Positions 4,553 through 40,969 are shown, counted from the stretch's first letter. The stretch is DNA of 40,969 nucleotides from Candidatus Staskawiczbacteria bacterium RIFCSPLOWO2_01_FULL_43_17b (GCA_001820305.1 MHPC01000002.1:1-40969), one strand, 5' to 3'. The notes: generated by a model from the sequence alone, not told the origin. Translations and numbers: made by a program.

Positions 4553-5225
4553 ATTTGAAAAGGTTACCAAAATTTACTTGCCCGAATCCGCCGTTTTGCA
4601 AGATGTTTCTTTTGAAGTAAAAAAGGGCGAGTTTGTTTCCATTGTGGGAAAATCGGGGGCGGGCAAATCCACCTTGATTAAAATGATTTTGGGGTTGGAA
4701 GAGCCCACCTACGGCGATGTCTTTTTTAACGGGGAAAACATTCATAAAGTCAGCCACAATGAATTGCAGAATATCCGGCGTAAAATCGGCGCGGTTTATC
4801 AGGATTACAAGTTGCTGCCCGCCAAAACCGTGTATGAGAACGTAGCCTATATCATGGAAATTGAAGGCAGGGTAAACGAAGATATTGCTTTGCAGGTTCC
4901 CAGGGTACTGGCGGCCATCGGGCTGAAAGAGAAAATGGATAACTTTCCCGAAGAACTTTCCGGCGGCGAACAGCAGCGCCTGGCCATTGCCCGGGCGTTA
5001 GCGGGGCAGCCGGAGGTGATTATTGCGGATGAGCCGACCGGGAATTTGGATCCGTATAATTCCCATGAAGTGCTGGCGCTGTTGGAAAAAATAAACCGGT
5101 CGGGGAAAACCGTTATCTTGGCCACGCACGATAGGGAAATTGTCAACAAATTAGCGCGAAGGGTGATTACCATAGAAGACGGGAGGGTGGTGAGGGACGA
5201 AGAAAAAGGAAGATTCATTATTTAG
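4545..5225 (+). CDS. ftsE: cell division ATP-binding protein FtsE (ABC ATPase)
   Basis: Walker A GKSGAGKST, signature LSGGEQQR, Walker B IIADEPTGNLD; overlaps prfB stop by 8 nt; followed by ftsX. Confidence 0.9.
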   Translation: MIRFEKVTKIYLPESAVLQDVSFEVKKGEFVSIVGKSGAGKSTLIKMILGLEEPTYGDVFFNGENIHKVSHNELQNIRRKIGAVYQDYKLLPAKTVYENVAYIMEIEGRVNEDIALQVPRVLAAIGLKEKMDNFPEELSGGEQQRLAIARALAGQPEVIIADEPTGNLDPYNSHEVLALLEKINRSGKTVILATHDREIVNKLARRVITIEDGRVVRDEEKGRFII

Positions 5226-5313
5226 GGTCTAGGGGATAGGGTCTAGGGTCTAGTAAAAACGTAACACGGCGTTACGGCTAAACCCTAACCCCTAGACCCT
5301 AAGCCCTCAAAAA
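5226..5313. repeat. intra-operon palindromic repeat (GGGTCTAGGG.../...CCCTAGACCCTAA arms, CCCTAA-type)
   Basis: imperfect inverted repeat arms of about 25 bp around central CGTAAC-ACGGC-GTTACG hairpin; fills ftsE-ftsX spacer exactly. Confidence 0.7.
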
Positions 5314-5314
5314 A

Positions 5315-6226
5315 ATGGCACATTTTTCAAGGGTATTGGGTTTCGCTTTTGCGCATTTTTACCGTAACAAAGGCACTTCCGTGGCCGCGATTTTTATTTT
5401 AACCATCACCACCCTGCTTATCACCGGGCTGTTTTTTGTGCGCGGCGCCAGTAATTACGTTATCGCTCAGGTGCAAAACAAAATTGACATTACCGCCTAT
5501 TTTAAAGCGGACGCGGCCGAAGATGATATTTTGCAGGTGCGCCAGGAATTGCTGCAAGATGGCGAAGTTGTCAGGGCGGTTGAATATGTTTCCCAAGACC
5601 AGGCTTTGGCCGATTTTAACGCAAAGCACCAAGATGATCCCACCTTTGAACGCGCACTTCAGGAAGTGGGGCAGAATCCCTTTTTGCCTTCACTGAATAT
5701 TATTACCAATGGGGCGGCGGCTGAATATGAGAATGTTGCCAATGTGCTGACCCAGGATAAATATGCCGTGCTAATAGAAGAGGTTGATTTTTCTGAAAAA
5801 AGGGATACTATTGAAAAGGTCTTTGCCATCACGGGTAGCATCACGCGGTTTGGGCTGGTGGCCGGGGTATTGCTTTTGCTGATTGCCATTTTAGTGGTTT
5901 TTAACACCATCAAACTGATTGTGGAAACTTCCGGGCAGGAAATCAGCACCATGCGTATTGTGGGGGCTTCAAACTGGTTTATTCGCGCGCCATTTGTTAT
6001 TCAAGGGGTTATTTTTGGGGCCATTTCGTTTGCCATTTGTTTTGTGGCAACCGCTTTGATAGCTTATCTTTTAGCTTCGGGGATTTCTGTTATCATGCCT
6101 GGATTTAATTTGTTCACATTTTTCCTTTCTAATATTTTGATTATCATGGTCATTCAACTGGCCGCCGGCGCGGGCCTGGCAAGTTTGTTAAGTTTTATGG
6201 TGGTGAGGAAGTATTTAAAAGTATAA
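5315..6226 (+). CDS. ftsX: cell division permease FtsX
   Basis: 303 aa, N-terminal TM, large periplasmic loop, three C-terminal TM helices; downstream of ftsE. Confidence 0.85.
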   Translation: MAHFSRVLGFAFAHFYRNKGTSVAAIFILTITTLLITGLFFVRGASNYVIAQVQNKIDITAYFKADAAEDDILQVRQELLQDGEVVRAVEYVSQDQALADFNAKHQDDPTFERALQEVGQNPFLPSLNIITNGAAAEYENVANVLTQDKYAVLIEEVDFSEKRDTIEKVFAITGSITRFGLVAGVLLLLIAILVVFNTIKLIVETSGQEISTMRIVGASNWFIRAPFVIQGVIFGAISFAICFVATALIAYLLASGISVIMPGFNLFTFFLSNILIIMVIQLAAGAGLASLLSFMVVRKYLKV

Positions 6227-6328
6227 ACCCTAAATACTAAATCCTAAACTCTAAATAAATTCAAAATCACAAAATTTAAAATCTAAAACACGTTTAGGAT
6301 TTAGAGTTTAGTGTTTATGGTTTAACAT
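6227..6328. repeat. intra-operon palindromic repeat (CTAAA-type; shares exact 25-mer TTTAGGATTTAGAGTTTAGTGTTTA with 37656-37760)
   Basis: arms AAACCCTAAATACTAAATCCTAAACTCTAAATAAA / TTTAGGATTTAGAGTTTAGTGTTTATGGTTT; fills gap between ftsX stop and tRNA-Gln. Confidence 0.7.
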
Positions 6329-6399
6329 TGCGGGATCGTCTAATGGTAGGACAACAGATTCTGGATCTGTTTATCTAGGTTCGAATCCTAGTCCCGCAG
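6329..6399 (+). tRNA. tRNA-Gln (anticodon CTG), no encoded CCA
   Basis: U1:A72 pair and G73 discriminator typical of bacterial tRNA-Gln; anticodon stem ACAGA/TCTGT loop TTCTGGA; T-arm CTAGG-TTCGAAT-CCTAG. Confidence 0.8.
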
Positions 6400-14603: not shown

Positions 14604-14881
14604 CCTAGGGCGCCAGTTCATATTATAACTTATGGTAGCGAGTAAATTCGGGCAAGATTCAAGGCGCAACGAGGAAACGTATCCTCTGCGATACGTTGAC
14701 GAAGTTGCAACGATGAAGCTTGCCCGAATTCACTCGCCCAAAGGGAAACCAAAAAATGGCTGATTTCTTCGTTTTTCCTCGTCGGCGATACACTGCGGTA
14801 TCGCCTCCTCGGAAGAAACCTTGAAATCATCTCATTTTTTGGCTTCTACCATAAGTCCTAATATGAACTGGCACCCTAGAG
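14604..14881 (+). ncRNA. about 280-nt structured element B (second family member): closing inverted repeat CCTAGGGCGCCAGTTCATATTA...TAATATGAACTGGCACCCTAGAG, inner helix GAATTCGGGCAAG/CTTGCCCGAATTC, conserved ATTCAAGGCGC / GCAACGATGAAG / TGAAAT.AT.TCATTTTTTG
   Basis: alignment with element A shows conserved loops and covarying helices; intergenic between Cys-rich ORF and MBL-fold gene. Confidence 0.55.
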
Positions 14882-22899: not shown

Positions 22900-22985
22900 A
22901 GTAGTTTTTCCTTTCAATGAGCGAATGATGGGTAATTTCACTAACCATTATATTATATTAAAATTTAATTTTGTCAAATAACCCC

Positions 22986-23011
22986 AGTCCTGTAGTCCGA
23001 ACCACAGGACT
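22986..23011 (+). promoter_or_regulatory. hairpin AGTCCTGT-AGTCCGAACC-ACAGGACT 8 nt upstream of TrpR-like gene; inverted partner at 23389-23414
   Basis: 26-nt sequences at both ends of the gene are reverse complements of each other (1 mismatch). Confidence 0.5.
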
Positions 23012-23018
23012 AAAATAA

Positions 23019-23372
23019 ATGACAGTCTTTCACCTAAATAAACTGCCAAAAGAAAAACGCATCCAGATGATTGGCGAGTTTTACGATATGGTGGATTCGC
23101 TAAAAGACAGAAATGAAGTGCGGTTATTTTTTAAGAGTCTTTTGAGTGCCGATGAAATAGCTAGTCTTATGAGACGGATAGAAATTGCCATGTTGTTGTC
23201 TTCTGGCCAGAAATACGAGGATATTATCAAAACCATGAAAGTGGGGCGTGATAAAATTTCCAGTGTGCATAAGGCGCTTCTGCAAGATGACAGCGGTTAT
23301 GCTATAATCGTGGAAAGATTAATTGAAAATCGGAAGAAGTGGGTGGAAAAAGTGAAAAAGGATAAAAAATAA
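23019..23372 (+). CDS. TrpR/YerC-YecD-like helix-turn-helix protein (paralog 1)
   Basis: 117 aa; LPKEKRIQMIGEFYDMVDSL...ADEIASLMRRIEIAMLL...KISSVHKALL; paralog at 29769-30200. Confidence 0.6.
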   Translation: MTVFHLNKLPKEKRIQMIGEFYDMVDSLKDRNEVRLFFKSLLSADEIASLMRRIEIAMLLSSGQKYEDIIKTMKVGRDKISSVHKALLQDDSGYAIIVERLIENRKKWVEKVKKDKK

Positions 23373-23388
23373 ATGCCAAAGTAACCGT

Positions 23389-23414
23389 AGTCCCGTGGTT
23401 CGGACTACAGGACT
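23389..23414 (+). promoter_or_regulatory. inverted copy of the 22986 hairpin, 16 nt downstream of gene stop
   Basis: AGTCCCGTGGTTCGGACTACAGGACT = reverse complement of upstream hairpin. Confidence 0.5.
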
Positions 23415-26733: not shown

Positions 26734-26811
26734 TTATCCCGATCAATTTAGCAAAGCTAAATTGATACGGGATCCCGTATCAAAATTTATACTAAATTTT
26801 TATCGGGATAG
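26734..26811. mobile_element. MITE-like hairpin element copy 2 (TTATCCCGAT-caATTTAGCAAAGCTAAAT-TGATACGGGATCCCGTATCA-...-ATCGGGATAG), no cargo
   Basis: same palindromes and terminal inverted repeats as 13728-13877. Confidence 0.55.
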
Positions 26812-27277: not shown

Positions 27278-29710
27278 ATGAAAAATGTTTTGTGGTTTAA
27301 AGAGCTAGGCATTAAAGATGTGCCGCAGGTGGGCGGGAAAAATGCCTCGCTTGGTGAAATGTATAATAATTTGCTAAGTAAGGGAGTTAATTTGGCAAAC
27401 GGTTTTGCCACCACCTCCCAGGCTTATTTTATTTTTCTGGAAAAAAGCGGCTTGTCTTTGCAAATCCAGAACATTTTAAAAGATATTAATGTGCATGACC
27501 TGGCCGCACTGCAAGAAAAAGGCAAGAAAGTGCGCCAGCTTATTTTGAGTGTTAATTTGCAGCCCGCCCTTCAAGAAGAAATCATCGCGGCTTACCGCCA
27601 GCTGTCGGATATGTACGGGTCAAAAAATACCGATGTGGCAGTAAGGTCTTCGGCCACTGCCGAAGACCTGCCCGGAGCCAGTTTTGCCGGCCAACAGGAA
27701 ACGTTTTTAAATGTTACCGGGGAACAAAATGTATTGGAGGCGGTGAAAAAATGCTTTGCATCTTTGTTCACTGACCGGGCCATTGCTTACCGCCAGGAAA
27801 TGGGGTTTGGGCATACCAAAGTGGGCTTATCGGCTGGCATCCAAAAAATGGTGCGCTCCGACGTGGGCGCCAGCGGCGTGATGTTTTCCTGTGACACGGA
27901 AAGCGGTTTTGGCGACGTGGTGCTCATTAACGCCAGCTATGGTTTGGGTGAAAATGTGGTGTTGGGAAGAGTGGAGCCGGACCAATATTACGTGTTTGAG
28001 CCTACCCTAAAAACGGGGCACAAACCCATTATCCAAAAAAAAATCGGGTCAAAGCTTTTGACCATGGTTTACACCAAAGACCCAAAAAACCCGATTAAAA
28101 ACACCAAAACCTTGCCAAAAAACCAGCAATCATTTGTGTTGGCAGATGAAGAAATTTTGCAGCTGGCTAAGTGGTCAATGCTGGTGGAAGCCCACTACCA
28201 AAAACCCATGGACATGGAATGGGCCAAAGACGGTATTGACGGCAAATTGTATATTGTCCAAGCTAGGCCCGAAACCGTACAAAGCAAACGGAACGTGAAT
28301 GTGCTAGAAGATTACGTTTTGCAAACACCCAAAACCCAACACCTAACACCCATTGCTAGGGGCATGAGTGTCGGGGGAAAAATCGGATCCGGCAAGGCCC
28401 ATAAAATTTTAAGCCCGAAGGATATTAATAATTTCAAAAAAGGGGAAGTGCTGGTAACCGGCATGACAGACCCGGACTGGGTGCCGGCCATGAAACTGGC
28501 CAGCGCGATTATTACCGACCAGGGCGGTCGCACGGCTCACGCGGCCATTGTTTCCCGTGAATTGGGAATTCCCTGCATTGTGGGCGCGGGCAATGCCACT
28601 AAAACCGTAAAAACCGGCCAGGAAATTACCGTGGATTGTTCCGGCGGAGAAGAGGGCTTTGCTTACGAAGGCATTATTCCGTTTGAAATAAAAAAAGTAG
28701 ATATTTCAAAATTAAAAAAGCCCAAAACTAAAATCGCCATGAACTTGGCAGACCCTTCCCAAGCCTTTAATTTAAGCTTTATTCCCAATGACGGCGTGGG
28801 CCTAGCGCGGGAAGAATTTATTATTGCCAACACCATCAAAATTCACCCCAACGCCCTGATAGATTACAAAAAATTAAAGCCGGCGCTGCGTAAAAAAATT
28901 GACGCGCTGACGCTGGGGTATGAAAATAAGATTGATTTTTACGTTGATAAATTGGCCGAAGGGGTGGGGAAAATTGGCGCGGCATTTTACCCAAAACAGG
29001 TGATAGTGCGATTTTCTGATTTTAAAACCAACGAATACCGTCAGTTGGTAGGCGGCGAGCTTTACGAAATGCATGAAGAAAATCCCATGATGGGTTTTCG
29101 CGGAGCTTCCCGGTATTATCACGAAAGTTTCAAGCAGGCCTTTATGTTGGAATGCCAGGCCATTAAAAAAGTGCGGGAGGAATTTGGCATTGATAACGTG
29201 CAAGTGATGATTCCCATGTGCCGGACTATTGAAGAGGGCCAGAAGGTGCTGGAAGTCATGAAGGAAGCCGGTTTGGTGAAAGGTGAGAACCCTTCGACAG
29301 GCTCAGGGCAAGTGGCCTTGAAAGTATATGTCATGTGCGAACTTCCGGCTAACGTGGTTTTAGCAGAACAGTTTTTGGAAATGTTTGACGGCTTTTCCAT
29401 TGGGTCTAATGATTTAACCCAGTTTACCCTGGGCCTGGACCGCGATAATTCGGAAATGTCCGGCGTTGCCAACGAAAAAAATGATGCGGTGAAAGAATTA
29501 ATTAAAGAGGCGGTGCGGGTTTGTAAAAAAATGGGGAAATATTCGGGCATTTGCGGAGACGCGCCTTCCACATTCCTTGAATTTACCAAATTTTTGGTAG
29601 ACCAGGGCATTGAATCAATTTCTTTGTCATCAGACGCCATTATTAAAACTACGATGGCGGTACTTGAGTATGAAAAGGAAAAATCCGCAAATACAATTAA
29701 TAGGACGTAG
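27278..29710 (+). CDS. ppsA: phosphoenolpyruvate synthase (pyruvate, water dikinase) carrying in-frame insertion
   Basis: N-terminal FKELGIKDVPQVGGKNASLGEM, phosphohistidine domain GGRTAHAAIVSRELGIPCIVG, C-terminal PEP-utilising domain; 810 aa. Confidence 0.9.
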   Translation: MKNVLWFKELGIKDVPQVGGKNASLGEMYNNLLSKGVNLANGFATTSQAYFIFLEKSGLSLQIQNILKDINVHDLAALQEKGKKVRQLILSVNLQPALQEEIIAAYRQLSDMYGSKNTDVAVRSSATAEDLPGASFAGQQETFLNVTGEQNVLEAVKKCFASLFTDRAIAYRQEMGFGHTKVGLSAGIQKMVRSDVGASGVMFSCDTESGFGDVVLINASYGLGENVVLGRVEPDQYYVFEPTLKTGHKPIIQKKIGSKLLTMVYTKDPKNPIKNTKTLPKNQQSFVLADEEILQLAKWSMLVEAHYQKPMDMEWAKDGIDGKLYIVQARPETVQSKRNVNVLEDYVLQTPKTQHLTPIARGMSVGGKIGSGKAHKILSPKDINNFKKGEVLVTGMTDPDWVPAMKLASAIITDQGGRTAHAAIVSRELGIPCIVGAGNATKTVKTGQEITVDCSGGEEGFAYEGIIPFEIKKVDISKLKKPKTKIAMNLADPSQAFNLSFIPNDGVGLAREEFIIANTIKIHPNALIDYKKLKPALRKKIDALTLGYENKIDFYVDKLAEGVGKIGAAFYPKQVIVRFSDFKTNEYRQLVGGELYEMHEENPMMGFRGASRYYHESFKQAFMLECQAIKKVREEFGIDNVQVMIPMCRTIEEGQKVLEVMKEAGLVKGENPSTGSGQVALKVYVMCELPANVVLAEQFLEMFDGFSIGSNDLTQFTLGLDRDNSEMSGVANEKNDAVKELIKEAVRVCKKMGKYSGICGDAPSTFLEFTKFLVDQGIESISLSSDAIIKTTMAVLEYEKEKSANTINRT
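29291..29312 (+). repeat. in-frame insertion element CCTTCGACAGGCTCAGGGCAAG (PSTGSGQV)
   Basis: splits conserved ...GLVKGEN|...|ALKVYVMCELPANV block of PpsA. Confidence 0.6.
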
Positions 29711-29735: not shown

Positions 29736-29761
29736 ACACCCATGCACCAACGCATGGGTGT
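29736..29761 (+). promoter_or_regulatory. hairpin ACACCCATGC-ACCAAC-GCATGGGTGT 7 nt upstream of TrpR-like paralog 2; inverted, wobble-paired partner at 30211-30239
   Basis: 10-bp perfect stem; downstream copy ACACTTATGCATTGGTGCGTGGGTACACT is its approximate reverse complement. Confidence 0.45.
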
Positions 29762-29768
29762 AAGAAAT

Positions 29769-30200
29769 ATGCCAACATTCCACCTAAATAGTTTACCAAA
29801 AGAAAAGAGAATTCAAATGATTGGCGAGTTTTATGATACGGTTGATTCACTGAAAGACAGGCAAGAGGTTCGCTCATTTTTCAAATCATTGCTAGCCGCC
29901 GATGAAATTGCTGCGCTCATGAGGAGGATTGAAGTGGCAATGCTTCTATCTGCTGAATATAGCTACGATAAAATCAAGAAAATGTTGGGGGTGGGGAATA
30001 ATAAAATTTCTAGTGTGCATAAAGCGTTGCTTCAAGACGATAGTGGATATGCTATGATTGTTAAAAGATTGATTGAGGACAGGAAAAATAGGTTAATAAA
30101 AATAAAAAAAGAAGGGAAGGGTACAATAGACGAAAAAGAATTAGAAAGGGAGGCGCTACTATTTACTCCGTCGTCTGCGGCGGTCAGGAGAAAGAAATAG
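29769..30200 (+). CDS. TrpR/YerC-YecD-like helix-turn-helix protein (paralog 2, longer C-terminal tail)
   Basis: about 70% identical to 23019-23372 over first 110 aa (MPTFHLNSLPKEKRIQMIGEFYDTVDSLKDRQEV...); start set to ATG 29769 by homology. Confidence 0.6.
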   Translation: MPTFHLNSLPKEKRIQMIGEFYDTVDSLKDRQEVRSFFKSLLAADEIAALMRRIEVAMLLSAEYSYDKIKKMLGVGNNKISSVHKALLQDDSGYAMIVKRLIEDRKNRLIKIKKEGKGTIDEKELEREALLFTPSSAAVRRKK

Positions 30201-30210
30201 TAATTATGGC

Positions 30211-30239
30211 ACACTTATGCATTGGTGCGTGGGTACACT
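30211..30239 (+). promoter_or_regulatory. downstream inverted copy of 29736 hairpin
   Basis: see 29736-29761. Confidence 0.4.
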
Positions 30240-35634: not shown

Positions 35635-35767
35635 AACAGTTCATTGAATCACCGGCCTGTCGGTGAAACGGTAGCTTCTGCAAGGAGTGAAAAGAAGCGC
35701 CGAGCCGCTCCCGGATTGCTGTGCAAGGCATCCGGGAGTTTTTAATTACTGCGAATTAGAATATGTT

Positions 35768-35811
35768 AAAAAAATGAGCCGTTTCGCTTTTGCGAAACGG
35801 CTCATTTTTTT
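35768..35811. terminator. bidirectional terminator (A7-TGAGCCGTTTCGC-tttt-GCGAAACGGCTCA-T7) between convergent genes
   Basis: perfect 13-bp stem flanked by A-run and T-run. Confidence 0.8.
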
Positions 35812-35812
35812 A

Positions 35813-36954: not shown

Positions 36955-37655
36955 TGACATCCGAATCTACTAATAACGTAAAACTTAACGCGGATGATAT
37001 GGCCAAAGCCGGCCTGAATTTTGGTCATACCGTTTCCAAGCTTCATCCTAAAATGAAGGCTTTTGTACAGGGCGTTAAAAGCAATGTCCACATGATTGAT
37101 ATGGAAAAGTCCGCCAAAGAATTTGATTTGGCTTTGAAATTTATTTCCCAATTAGTTGCCGAAGGAAAAACATTGCTGTTTGTGGGAACAAAAATACAGG
37201 CAAAAAATTTAACCAAAGTAGCGGCGGTGGAAAGCGGTATGCCATATGTTACCGAACGGTGGCTGGGTGGAGCCTTTACTAATTTTGAAACCATTTCAAA
37301 ACGGGTGGCTCACTTGAAAGACTTGGAAAGCAAAAAAGCCAAAGGTGAATTTGAGAAATATACCAAATATGAACAGATGATGCTTAATGAAGAAATCGCT
37401 TCGCTGACCACGAAATTTGAAGGCATCAAAAATATGGCAAAGTTGCCGGAAGCCGTTTTAATTTTAGATTTAAAAAAAGACATTGCCGTAGCGCGTGAAG
37501 CAAAACGCAAGGGTATTAAAATTGTGGGCATTGTAGACACCAATATTGACCCGGCTCTGGCCGATTACGCCATTTATGCCAATGATGACGCCGTTTCTTC
37601 TATTGGATACGTGCTGGAAAAAATCAAAGAAACTATATTAAGTGCGAAACCCTAA
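36954..37655 (+). CDS. rpsB: 30S ribosomal protein S2
   Basis: AGLNFGHTVSKLHPKMKAFV..., LLFVGTK, conserved S2 blocks. Confidence 0.9.
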   Translation: MTSESTNNVKLNADDMAKAGLNFGHTVSKLHPKMKAFVQGVKSNVHMIDMEKSAKEFDLALKFISQLVAEGKTLLFVGTKIQAKNLTKVAAVESGMPYVTERWLGGAFTNFETISKRVAHLKDLESKKAKGEFEKYTKYEQMMLNEEIASLTTKFEGIKNMAKLPEAVLILDLKKDIAVAREAKRKGIKIVGIVDTNIDPALADYAIYANDDAVSSIGYVLEKIKETILSAKP

Positions 37656-37760
37656 ATCCGAAACCCTAAACTCTAAATAAATAAAAAATTCAAAATAAAA
37701 AACGTTTTGAGTTTAAATATTTGAGTTTATTTAGGATTTAGAGTTTAGTGTTTAGAATTT
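37656..37760. repeat. intra-operon palindromic repeat (CTAAA-type; exact 25-mer shared with 6227-6328)
   Basis: CCCTAAATCCGAAACCCTAAACTCTAAATAAAT...TTTAGGATTTAGAGTTTAGTGTTTA fills rpsB-tsf spacer. Confidence 0.7.
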
Positions 37761-38210
37761 ATGATTAATATCGAAGATATTAAGAGATTGAGAGATGAAA
37801 CCGGTGCCTCGCCGGTGAAAATTAAAAAGGCCATGGAAGAGTCTGGGGAAGATGTTCAAAAAGCCAAGGAATTGTTGAAAAGCTGGGGAGCGGTAAAAGC
37901 CGGTGAAAAAGGAGGGCGCGAAACCCATGACGGTGTGATTGATTTTTATATCCATCCTAATGCCAAGTCCGGCGTACTACTGGATATCCGTTGTGAAACT
38001 GATTTTGTGGCAAAAAACCCCGATTTTAAAAGCCTGGCTCACGAAATTTGCCTGCACATTGCCGCCATGCAGCCTGAAAATGTTGAAGCCTTGCTGGCGC
38101 AATCCTGGGTAAAAGACGATGCCAAAACCATTAAAAGTTTGATTGAAGAAACAGTAGCTAAAATAGGGGAGAATATTACTGTGAAACAGTTTGCACGCTT
38201 TGCGATATAA
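37761..38210 (+). CDS. tsf: elongation factor Ts (short form)
   Basis: UBA-like N-terminus IKRLRDETGASPVKIKKAMEESGEDVQKAKELLK followed by dimerisation core. Confidence 0.85.
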   Translation: MINIEDIKRLRDETGASPVKIKKAMEESGEDVQKAKELLKSWGAVKAGEKGGRETHDGVIDFYIHPNAKSGVLLDIRCETDFVAKNPDFKSLAHEICLHIAAMQPENVEALLAQSWVKDDAKTIKSLIEETVAKIGENITVKQFARFAI

Positions 38211-38818: not shown

Positions 38819-39276
38819 GCCATCTTGAAATGAGGGAGGTAAGTAGCAAGTGAAAACCAAGCACTCATTTTTGTACATTAAGCCAGGGGGTGGATTGCGT
38901 GTCGTTGGCACGAGCGGCGGCACCTTTTTCGGTTGCGCCTAGGGTCAGGGTAACGGGAAAAGAACCAGTAATAATCGTGACTGGACAGTTCACCTCTTGT
39001 AATTTTCAGGGAAAAAGGAATGGGCTGGCCAGCCTATTGGCGCTCCGGGTTCAGTTTCGTTAACTGACGACGAGGTCTTCCACGCGGCCCATTTCCTCTT
39101 TTTTCAATGTGTCCAAAAATGAGTGCTCGGTAAAGTAACTTGTTTAAAATTAGTTTTTGAAAGTTGTTTCGAATAAGCTTAATACGTGCTTAACGTATAT
39201 ATTATTTGAGAGTTTGATCCTAGCTCAGGGTGAACGCTGGAAATGTGGATACCGGCATGCAAGTCAAGGGGCCCAG

Positions 39277-39543
39277 GGATGTAGACTCTGAACGCGAATC
39301 TAAATTGAGAAGCGAAAAAATGTGATAATTTCAATGTTTCTTGCGACGAAATGTAGTGACTACTACATTGAGGAGTAAAAACGAAGAAATTAGCCATTTT
39401 TTCGCTTCCCTTCGGGCTTTCATATTTTGATTATCTTCTGCGTCTTCGGAGCTTAACGATGCCTACAGCATCGCTTCGCTCCTCAGTTCTTGAATATAAT
39501 CAAAATATGGAAGCTCAATTGATTCTGTTCAGAGTCTACATCC
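39277..39543 (+). other. about 267-nt intervening sequence in 16S helix 6 closed by perfect 17-bp stem GGATGTAGACTCTGAAC/GTTCAGAGTCTACATCC
   Basis: E. coli has about 35 nt here; AT-rich interior with several CGCTTC-containing hairpins; no ORF. Confidence 0.6.
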
Positions 39544-39933
39544 TTAAGGCACCGGCGAACGGCTTAGTAACACGTGGATACATACCGCAAAGTGGAGCAC
39601 AGCTCGTCGAAAGACGGGGTAATTCTCCATAATCCCGCAAGGGTAAACACGCAAGTGGCTTTGTGAATGGTCCGCGGTCTATCAGCTAGTTGGTGAGGTA
39701 ATGGCTCACCAAGGCTATGACGGATAGGGGGCGTGAGAGCGCGACCCCCAAGAATGGCACTGCGACACGGGCCATACTCCTACGGGAGGCTGCAGTCGAG
39801 AATCTTCCACAATGGACGAAAGTCTGATGGAGCGACATTTCGTGATGGATGAAGCCCTTCGGGGTGTAAACATCTTTTATGCGGGAAAAAATTATTGATT
39901 GTACCGCATGAATAAGGGGGTACTAATTCTGTG

Positions 39934-40815
39934 ACCCGCAAGGGTGGTGCAGAATATTCGCAGTAATGCGGATAAAGCAAACTTGGCTCATATGCTGGAA
40001 CACCTTGTGTGTCCGCTAACTCCTTTCATTTTTGAAAGGCGCGCACAAGACAATCAGCAGGGAAGCTGATATATGTTATAATAAACATATATTTAGCCCC
40101 TCAGAGACTGAATCCGAAAGGATGAAATGGTGGCATATAACCCACCATTATACGCCGAGCTCCTGGTTTTTAATCAGGATGATGGGATAGTCCAGTGGCA
40201 CATTATCGTATATGGAAACAAAGGCGCGAGCAATATTAATTGGATTAATTCTTGGAGATGGATATTTAACAAAGCCGTTTGGTAGCAGTACCAAATCTAT
40301 GCTGGATATTAAATATCATGAGAAATCTTTAGAGTATCTTCAATGGATGCATAAAGAGTTACAAGAATTACAACTTTCTGAAATCAAAAAGAAAAAAGGG
40401 GCTTCCCAATATCGGTTTTATACTAAAACCAGAGATGATATTGGCCGGCTTCATGAGATATTTTATCCTGGCGGAGTCAAACATATTCCAAAAGGTATTA
40501 CTAAATATCTTAAAGATCCGTTAACTTTGGCCGTGTGGTATCAAGATGACGGAAAGCTAGATTTCAGGAGCAAATATCATTCCAATTCATTATTTGCGAC
40601 ATATTGTTTTCCCTACGATGAATGTGAATTATTAGCTAATGCATTGCGTGTAAATTTTGACTTAGATGTGCGAGTCTGCAAATGTCAAATGCGTGGAAAA
40701 ATGTATTATTCTTTATATGTGACCTCAAAAAGCATGGATTTATTCATGCAGATTATTGAGCCACATATACAGAAATGCTTTTACTATAAATTAGTAAAGT
40801 ATCGCAAATAACTAG
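39934..40815 (+). mobile_element. intron/intervening sequence in 16S (within GTG|CCAGCAG, E. coli about 515) encoding a LAGLIDADG homing endonuclease
   Basis: conserved 16S sequence resumes at GCCAGCAGTAGCGGTAATAC (40815); exact boundaries ambiguous by 1 nt because of G at both junctions. Confidence 0.7.
40212..40811 (+). CDS. LAGLIDADG homing endonuclease (double-motif)
   Basis: LIGLILGDGYL and LAVWYQDDGKL motifs; 199 aa; stop 4 nt before 3' exon. Confidence 0.85.
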   Translation: METKARAILIGLILGDGYLTKPFGSSTKSMLDIKYHEKSLEYLQWMHKELQELQLSEIKKKKGASQYRFYTKTRDDIGRLHEIFYPGGVKHIPKGITKYLKDPLTLAVWYQDDGKLDFRSKYHSNSLFATYCFPYDECELLANALRVNFDLDVRVCKCQMRGKMYYSLYVTSKSMDLFMQIIEPHIQKCFYYKLVKYRK

Positions 40816-40969
40816 CCAGCAGTAGCGGTAATACAGAACCCCCGAGCGTTACCCGGATTTATTGGGCGTAAAGGGTTGGTAGGTGGCGTAGTAAGTTCAA
40901 GATTAAACCTCATCGGCTTAACCTTTGAGCTGTTTTGAATACTGCTACACTAAGAGGGCGTTAGAGGCA

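Follow-up and report, generated by a model that had tools for sequence, protein, structure and literature searches.

In the ParB-parS, Noc-NBS and MatP-matS systems a HTH protein is paired with a small number of palindromic sites, which in many cases lie inside coding genes; parS was first discovered inside the gene spo0J. Rickettsia palindromic elements (RPEs) are repeats of about 100–150 bp found in-frame in housekeeping genes, where they add a peptide that is tolerated; we know of no cognate protein for them. To our knowledge very few regulators are recognisable in CPR bacteria and none has been characterised. REP/REPIN-RAYT systems comprise several palindrome classes per genome, each tied to a protein gene that is single-copy, vertically inherited and has the repeats on its flanks (PMC3116915, PMC3337134). 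In the TrpR/HisR family of repressors the operators are palindromes of about 20 bp and autoregulation is known (PMC9413887). HisR, which is YerC of B. subtilis, is a histidine repressor whose binding sites are 20-bp palindromes and which controls its own gene in about half of the genomes, and the half-site motif of TrpR is GNACT, with direct repeats 8 bp apart in the trp operators, the spacing of tandem TrpR binding (PMC9413887). In the literature searched we found no paper on palindromes or YerC in CPR bacteria, nor any description of private site classes for each paralog, of the bracketing of the gene or of the spread of such sites in-frame and into introns.

We have analyzed a stretch of 40,969 nucleotides from Candidatus Staskawiczbacteria bacterium RIFCSPLOWO2_01_FULL_43_17b (the window) that carries two paralogous genes of this family, each accompanied by palindromes of its own. 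The source names of the homologues, together with a 16S gene that holds a large insertion, point to a genome of the Parcubacteria/Staskawiczbacteria type. The features involved are the following.

22937 to 22964, plus strand: candidate sigma-70-like promoter, weak (TTCACT-16-TAAAAT, consensus match only), upstream of palindrome A
22986 to 23011, no strand: class-A 26-bp palindrome AGTCCTGTAGTCCGAACCACAGGACT, 7 nt 5' of the ATG of gene 1, proposed autoregulatory operator of this yerC-like gene
23019 to 23372, plus strand: YerC/TrpR-like gene 1, 117 aa, short form, start of the recognition helix G-R-D-K
23389 to 23414, no strand: second class-A palindrome, reverse complement of the first with 1 mismatch (inverted-repeat match)
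28346 to 28371, no strand: decayed class-B-like copy ACACCCATTGCTAGGGGCATGAGTGT, in-frame (TPIARGMSV) in the PEP-utilising enzyme (PPDK) gene at 27278–29710
29736 to 29761, no strand: class-B 26-bp palindrome ACACCCATGCACCAACGCATGGGTGT, proposed as operator of gene 2, whose ATG follows after 7 nt
29769 to 30200, plus strand: YerC/TrpR-like gene 2, 143 aa, start of the recognition helix G-N-N-K
30211 to 30236, no strand: class-B copy ACACTTATGCATTGGTGCGTGGGTAC, degenerate, 10 nt past the gene 2 stop codon, with an 18-nt inverted match to the upstream copy

The first-pass annotation had described gene 1 as bracketed by two inverted copies, 8 nt before the ATG and 16 nt after the stop. Both copies are there and the downstream distance is as given, while the upstream one is 7 nt; the downstream palindrome also lies 24 nt 5' of the ATG of the next gene. 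The two matches to the gene 1 palindrome were reproduced in 0 shuffles of the window, and a chance origin of the palindrome pairs was rejected, since shuffles never reproduce the matches. The promoter candidate would place palindrome A at about +15 to +40 of the transcript; promoter scans in the orthologues were weak and inconsistent.

The palindromes of the two paralogs differ in sequence, as had been noticed at first sight, gene 1 having class A and gene 2 class B. The downstream copy of gene 2 shows 6 differences from the inverted upstream copy, all of them transitions, it is devoid of one outer pentamer of the class-B palindrome and looks decayed. It had been described as inverted and partly paired by G·U; the inversion holds, and three of the six changes do produce G·U on the plus strand, which as a single case is not significant. 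The upstream hairpins have predicted folding energies of −12.3 (gene 1) and −19.0 kcal/mol (gene 2), with z values of −4.9 and −5.9, and the downstream copy of gene 2 folds weakly (z = −1.1). Within the window the search for further copies gave only the decayed one in the PPDK gene, which has 3 mismatches to the class-B arms (chance expectation 0.01, from shuffles) and encodes a peptide that resembles those of other class-B copies, e.g., TPAHRCTGV in L054.

Both proteins scored above the curated cut-offs of Trp_repressor (PF01371; 47.7 and 56.8 bits for genes 1 and 2, cut-off 27) and YerC/YecD (TIGR02531; 50.4 and 52.2 bits, cut-off 42.2), so the initial assignment to TrpR/YerC-like HTH proteins is sound, and their identity, estimated then at about 70%, is 74% over 117 aa. 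These two families were the only ones above curated cut-offs and no HUH family appeared among the Pfam/NCBIfam matches, in agreement with the view that this is not an IS200-type unit; neither that scan nor the AF2 model revealed a transposase or catalytic domain in the YerC-like proteins. The AF2 model of the gene 1 protein (pLDDT 82.5) has six helices in an all-helical TrpR fold, with the HTH formed by helices D and E. Its top Foldseek matches were 3g1c, 3kor and 3frw (probability 1.00, TM 0.70–0.75), followed by TrpR 1tro and 2oz9, and a PDB profile search agreed (E about 1e-13). The first three are HisR-type structures, and both paralogs are members of the TrpR/YerC(HisR) family. The YerC-like proteins, all-helical and 117–180 aa long, share 46 invariant columns among 31 sequences, a conservation far above that of ordinary repressors, which hints at an additional partner of the protein. 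Most members have a conserved C-terminal extension of 60 aa, with a tail ending in LExEALLFTPS that is kept in gene 2 and missing from gene 1. Gene 1 and P0003 (89% identical) are of the short form (117 aa), without this conserved C-terminal domain; gene 2 retains the terminal motif and has an internal deletion. In a distance tree the two proteins of the window, W1 (gene 1) and W2 (gene 2), group together although their sites belong to different classes, and gene conversion between the two genes may account for this.

We fetched 39 orthologous loci from species-representative genomes; every locus used comes from a metagenome assembly. Ahead of the ATG, at 5–15 nt in most cases, a strong palindrome of about 26 nt is present in nearly all of the 41 genes compared, so that the expectation that orthologues would carry them was borne out. 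The bracketing was borne out in part: the upstream copy is near-universal, and a second copy beside the stop codon is found in about half of the genes only. The class-A 26-mer of 22986–23011 lies also 8–9 nt 5' of the ATG in L001, L003 and L014, and its flipped form precedes the gene in L002 and L004; these five loci keep it despite proteins that are just 75–77% identical. Class-B palindromes are found upstream of the orthologues L007, L009, L012, L013, L017 and L018. By their outer pentamer we have distinguished classes A (AGTCC), B (ACACC), C (GYTCC), D (ACTCC), E (AGTAC) and F (AGTTC), plus others. Genomes carry two, three or more paralogs, and in the window as in the orthologous loci these sit among genes of lower glycolysis (enolase, phosphoglycerate mutase, GAPDH, PEP-utilising enzyme and PfkB kinase). 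With glycolytic neighbours the effector, if there is any, may differ from Trp or His.

The palindrome sequences diverge greatly between clades and their two-fold symmetry is kept throughout. Over 35 distinct 26-mers, 94% of the cells were paired and 10 of 11 pairs had double changes. Double-change cells numbered 101 versus 35 in shuffles, and the signal collapsed once the partners were slid. The only essentially invariant pair is C5:G22. The outer half-sites of classes A, E and F are GGACT, GTACT and GAACT, matching the TrpR half-site GNACT, and class A has AGTCC twice, 8 bp apart. The similarity of AACC/CCAAC loops between the two hairpins of the window, to which attention had been drawn, is not general, as other classes have the centres CTAG, CCGG and TAGG. 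The class-A centre is asymmetric (AGTCCGAACC). Exactly this centre is present in 35 of 40 distinct copies even though ten states are allowed, and it is found in either orientation to the gene, even between sister orthologues (L001 versus L002; TsaD of L049 versus L056).

The distance from the downstream copy to the stop of the yerC gene is tight, from −23 to +16 nt (3–16 nt past the stop, or overlapping the last codons by 15–23 nt), and that to the next ATG is variable (9 to 164 nt). The downstream copy therefore belongs to the yerC gene and not to the next promoter, and the possibility that it is an operator of the next gene was rejected as a general rule. It is absent from almost the whole class-A clade, W1 and L019 being the exceptions, and this, together with the decay of the W2 copy, indicates that the upstream copy is the constrained one. 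The two flanking copies are direct in L008, L017, L019, L031 and L035 and inverted in W1, L025, L026 and L036. Such a mixture of orientations is not what one expects of terminal inverted repeats, nor of a long-range RNA stem as a general feature.

The two residues that start the recognition helix, Arg77-Asp78 in W1, align with Ile79-Ala80 of TrpR (first turn of helix E) and with Thr-Ala of HisR. Throughout the set they go together with the outer pentamer of the palindrome, as follows.

Residues 77–78 R-D (G-R-D-K): outer pentamer AGTCC
Residues 77–78 N-N, N-G, N-E: outer pentamer ACACC
Residues 77–78 R-G, K-S: outer pentamer AGTAC or AGTTC
Residues 77–78 S-D: outer pentamer GYTCC
Residues 77–78 N-D, D-D: outer pentamer ACTCC

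Among the genome loci 8 combine R-D with AGTCC, as do all 10 distinct metagenome loci (about 18 distinct loci); the co-occurrence of class and paralog was examined at the level of contigs and samples. When residue 77 was Arg or Lys, position 2 of the site was a purine (21/21 genome loci), and with any other residue it was a pyrimidine (20/20 loci), a covariation that rests on perhaps 12–15 independent clades and not on 41 independent points. In the protein tree the same associations reappear in several clades that are separate from each other. Moreover, the syntenic orthologues W2 and L027, both beside PfkB, differ in class (class B with G-N-N-K and class C with G-S-D-K, respectively), indicating that site and protein change together along the lineage.

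We propose that each paralog binds its own palindrome and autoregulates, the sites being operators in duplex DNA, and judging from the sequence patterns we consider this reading probable, with a good deal of room left for doubt. The idea of co-evolving protein and site pairs acting as autoregulatory operators had been put forward in the first-pass annotation, and it is supported by the fixed placement before the ATG, the covariation of residues and classes and the precedent of the family (PMC9413887). The "hairpins" would be double-stranded, two-fold-symmetric operators of 26–28 bp made of TrpR-type pentamers, with an inverted pentamer pair at positions 1–5 and 22–26 and additional pentamers 8 bp inward of it. 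Every YerC/TrpR-like paralog would recognise its own site class via the first turn of the recognition helix, probably binding the site as one or two dimers, and the gene product sitting on the copy 5–15 bp upstream of the start codon would exert negative autoregulation. The copy after the stop, present in about half of the family, would be a second site for the same protein that could permit cooperative binding or looping across the 0.4–0.55-kb gene or, alternatively, could insulate the yerC gene from the neighbouring glycolytic operons.

The regulator and operator part is of the known TrpR/HisR kind. The Pfam and TIGRFAM family and the fold are the same, and symmetric operators and frequent autoregulation are shared features (PMC9413887). 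Classes A, E and F use the GNACT half-site with the 8-bp spacing, and the class-E centre GTACTAGTAC resembles the trp operator. In contrast with the HisR and TrpR operators of about 20 bp, the sites described here have 26–28 bp and are almost perfectly symmetric, a genome has 2–3 or more paralogs and each of these has a site class to itself, and the gene often has a second site at its 3' end. The extension of 60 aa at the C-terminus is present in most members, the neighbours are glycolytic and not his or trp genes, and the sites also appear in-frame within unrelated essential genes and in introns. A model of promoter operators leaves these copies inside coding sequences and introns unexplained.

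The dispersion of the palindromes was unexpected. We scanned metagenome contigs for the class-A 26-mer and obtained 44 loci, a census that required the exact pattern and is thus biased to intact copies. In 16 of the 44 loci the 26-mer adjoins a yerC gene and in 2 more it is nearby (L042, cut at the start of yerC, and L083, close to yerC); in the remaining ones, about 26, it is elsewhere, away from yerC. The dispersed copies, including those of other classes, were located as follows.

Class A, atpG: five loci, same position, in-frame
Class A, trmD: two different positions and reading phases, in-frame
Class A, tsaD: three loci, two of them also with a class-B copy 400 nt away, in-frame
Class A, enolase: L045, in-frame
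Class A, Mur ligase: L051, in-frame
Class A, class-II aminoacyl-tRNA synthetase: L077, in-frame
Class A, peptidyl-tRNA hydrolase (pth): L076, in-frame
Class A, RluA-type synthase: L067 and L078, in-frame
Class A, 932-aa protein outside named families: L058, L061 and L082
Class A, upstream of dnaK, non-coding: L069
Class A, group I intron of 23S rRNA: L081, 2769–2794, at the tip of a hairpin CCYAAAAT...ATTTTTRGG
Class A, insertion of 16S rRNA: L074, 2444–2469, in sequence homologous to the L081 hairpin
Class A and class B, one tsaD gene, both in-frame about 400 nt apart: L049, 4511–4536 (class A, SPVVRTTGL) and 4937–4962 (class B, TPAHRCTGV)
Class C: L027, 6 nt before the ATG of another gene
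Class D, enolase: L003, in-frame
ACATC-type: L054, in a 742-aa ORF, RecG-like by sequence motif alone

In one reading phase both orientations of the class-A 26-mer encode SPVVRTTGL. As position −1 is always a pyrimidine and position +1 always a purine, the unit comprises at least 28 nt, and one subfamily has a GAGTR extension. The two-class tsaD gene of L049 recurs in L054. That unrelated genes as well as introns harbour an identical 26-mer, asymmetric centre included, excludes point mutation as the origin of the dispersed copies, and hence some process of copy-and-paste or conversion must exist. As dispersed copies are found at low number elsewhere in related genomes, the sites also behave like a REP-like repeat family. 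Scattered copies with no association to promoters, which had been named beforehand as a reason to doubt the pairing of protein and site, do occur in related genomes, and the pairing is not refuted by them; a simple regulon of promoters does not account for everything, and the dispersion of the palindromes themselves is a point that the earlier description missed.

An explanation along these lines is a REP-like partnership, in which the palindromes would primarily be self-propagating short repeats that the YerC-like protein, as their cognate partner, targets, mobilises or tames, with autoregulation being secondary; RAYT genes likewise have their own REPs on both flanks. We regard it as somewhat unlikely. 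In its favour, most class-A metagenome loci are away from yerC, and solo copies lie in-frame in housekeeping genes, in the 23S group I intron and in the 16S insertion. Among 120 atpG homologues most had no insert at the loop concerned and subsets carried there class A (in some cases decayed), class E (FSTTDQSVVL) or an L008-type insert, a pattern confirmed at the DNA level with AAAATTT-type repeats flanking the inserts, and such presence/absence polymorphism with decayed copies and three classes is in line with repeats that spread. So are the single "master" centre found in either orientation and the attachment of the downstream copy to the stop of yerC instead of to the next gene. Direct repeats of 9–12 nt flank 4 of 35 copies versus 0.6% in controls, although their length and register vary, most copies have none, and no active transposition was seen. 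The copy upstream of dnaK (L069, 694–747) is flanked by the 11-nt direct repeat ATTGTGCGACA, which may reflect duplication of either the target site or an operator. The REP-like explanation is weakened further by the nature of the protein, with its 117–180 aa in helices and no catalytic domain, and by the low copy number: exact class-A copies could be counted in one draft genome, Ga0075913, and numbered about 3 there (L058, L062 and L063). It is compatible with the reading of autoregulating paralogs and no alternative to the claim of binding. A phage origin of the palindromes was rejected, as IMG/VR gave 0 matches for class A and 1 for a class-B-like pattern.

The likeness to REP/REPIN-RAYT lies in short palindromes that fall in classes, have their own flanked gene and a dominant master sequence, and leave further dispersed copies (A, B, D and ACATC-type). 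Here, however, the partner is a HTH protein without a HUH/Y1 motif, the copies are few per genome and not tens to hundreds, they are often intragenic and not extragenic, and no GTAG/CGTC tag is common to all classes. With RPEs they share the in-frame insertion, but the elements are of 26–33 bp and have a dedicated candidate binding protein. Compared with ParB-parS, Noc-NBS and MatP-matS the protein family is a different one, and the multiple paralog and site classes have no counterpart there. A repeat system of Parcubacteria, with families of 26–33-bp palindromes that copy at low frequency into tolerant places, each family being tied to its own TrpR-like paralog and bracketing the gene of that paralog, is an idea that we take seriously while leaning against it. 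If true, insertions would fall in loops on the surface of essential proteins, at the hairpin tips of group I introns in rRNA and in DNA between genes, and the logic would be that of a REPtron with a sequence-specific DNA-binding protein replacing the transposase. The TrpR-like protein may then recruit host enzymes to move the repeat or, alternatively, be kept for neutralising its harmful effects, which would be a form of addiction.

The perfect symmetry over 26 bp and the strong hairpin potential would equally suit a structure in RNA or single-stranded DNA. The palindromes could thus be stem-loops of the 5'-UTR and 3'-UTR that mask the RBS or stabilise, terminate or process the mRNA, with the protein uninvolved, and the stability of the predicted stems, their tight spacing to ATG and stop and the strong compensatory covariation are all as they should be in that case; we nevertheless find it quite unlikely. 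Pairs of the G·U type on the plus strand are seen in the W2 downstream copy, L008, L017 and L026, but with no overall excess over A·C: in the upstream palindromes the plus-strand mismatches were 12 G·T versus 9 A·C, and in the analysis of compensatory changes G·U cells were about as many as unpaired ("other") ones. The centre appears in both orientations to transcription, which would turn an RNA loop into its complement, and the invariant C5:G22 and the correlation with HTH residues are unexpected for a purely structural stem. There is no U-tract after the stems and Rfam gave 0 family matches. The G·T and A·C balance, the flipping of the conserved centre, the lack of a U-tract and the mixed orientation of the flanks favour sites in duplex DNA. 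With the compensatory symmetry of the classes, their TrpR-type pentamers and their tracking of the recognition-helix residues included, the sequence data favour such sites over RNA hairpins, and also over transposon ends. SD-like motifs (AGGA, GGAG or GGTG) do fall in the 3' arm, AGGA/GGAG often 8–14 nt before the ATG, and an effect on translation at the RNA level could coexist with the DNA sites. Intrinsic terminators were discarded because no T-run follows the palindromes on the plus strand; classical terminators exist elsewhere in this genome, e.g., at 35767–35812. At the gathering threshold Rfam found only tRNAs and 16S rRNA in the window, which discards a known RNA family. Long-range pairing of the flanks as an RNase III stem is possible in W1 and not general, given the direct orientation in many orthologues.

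The mobile cassette with inverted ends contemplated in the first-pass annotation, i.e., a yerC-like gene that transposes as a unit with two terminal inverted repeats, is hardly credible, for although W1 and about half of the orthologues have the bracket, with both copies no more than 16 nt from the ORF ends, the relative orientation of the two copies is direct about as often as inverted, about half of the genes have no downstream copy and almost the whole class-A clade has the upstream one alone, the synteny with trxB, enolase, PfkB, PGM and PPDK is conserved, and there is one copy per paralog per genome with no transposase domain.

The reading of autoregulating paralogs makes available a set of testable repressor and operator pairs, with the protein, the candidate 26-bp site and the predicted specificity residues 77 and 78 in hand, in genes that sit amid the glycolytic genes powering these fermenters. 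The classes would amount to a natural series of specificity switches in one scaffold, useful for understanding and engineering TrpR-type recognition. The dispersed copies indicate that, in a minimal genome, a palindrome that is a candidate target of a protein can spread to essential genes and also to introns of rRNA; they explain some odd peptide insertions in CPR housekeeping proteins and link the study of repeats (REP, RPE) with the evolution of transcription factors.

Other repeats and RNA features were found in the window. A 16S rRNA gene at 39202–40969 runs off its end and holds insertion(s) of about 1.1 kb, its 1,768 nt covering only model positions 1–659; such insertions are frequent in the rRNA genes of CPR bacteria. 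At 13899–14170 and 14605–14879 there is a pair of paralogous units, each about 280 nt long, which are roughly 60% identical and have an internal hairpin each. Each is closed by its own inverted repeat of 29–34 nt, and the closing stems differ and both pair. They look like a structured RNA or a small element in two copies, and gave no Rfam match at E ≤ 0.1. Long intergenic inverted repeats of telomere-like heptamers (TTAGGGT / CCCTAAA / AAACTCT variants) lie at 5222–5307, 6213–6328 and 37648–37766, the second immediately 5' of the tRNA-Gln at 6329. Finally, the 24-nt palindrome ATTGATACGGGATCCCGTATCAAA occurs twice with shared flanks of about 10 nt, at 13754–13777, just upstream of a tRNA-Ile and beside a duplicated 5' tRNA fragment at about 13704–13735, and at 26761–26784, within the 770-nt gap between the GAPDH and PEP-utilising enzyme genes.
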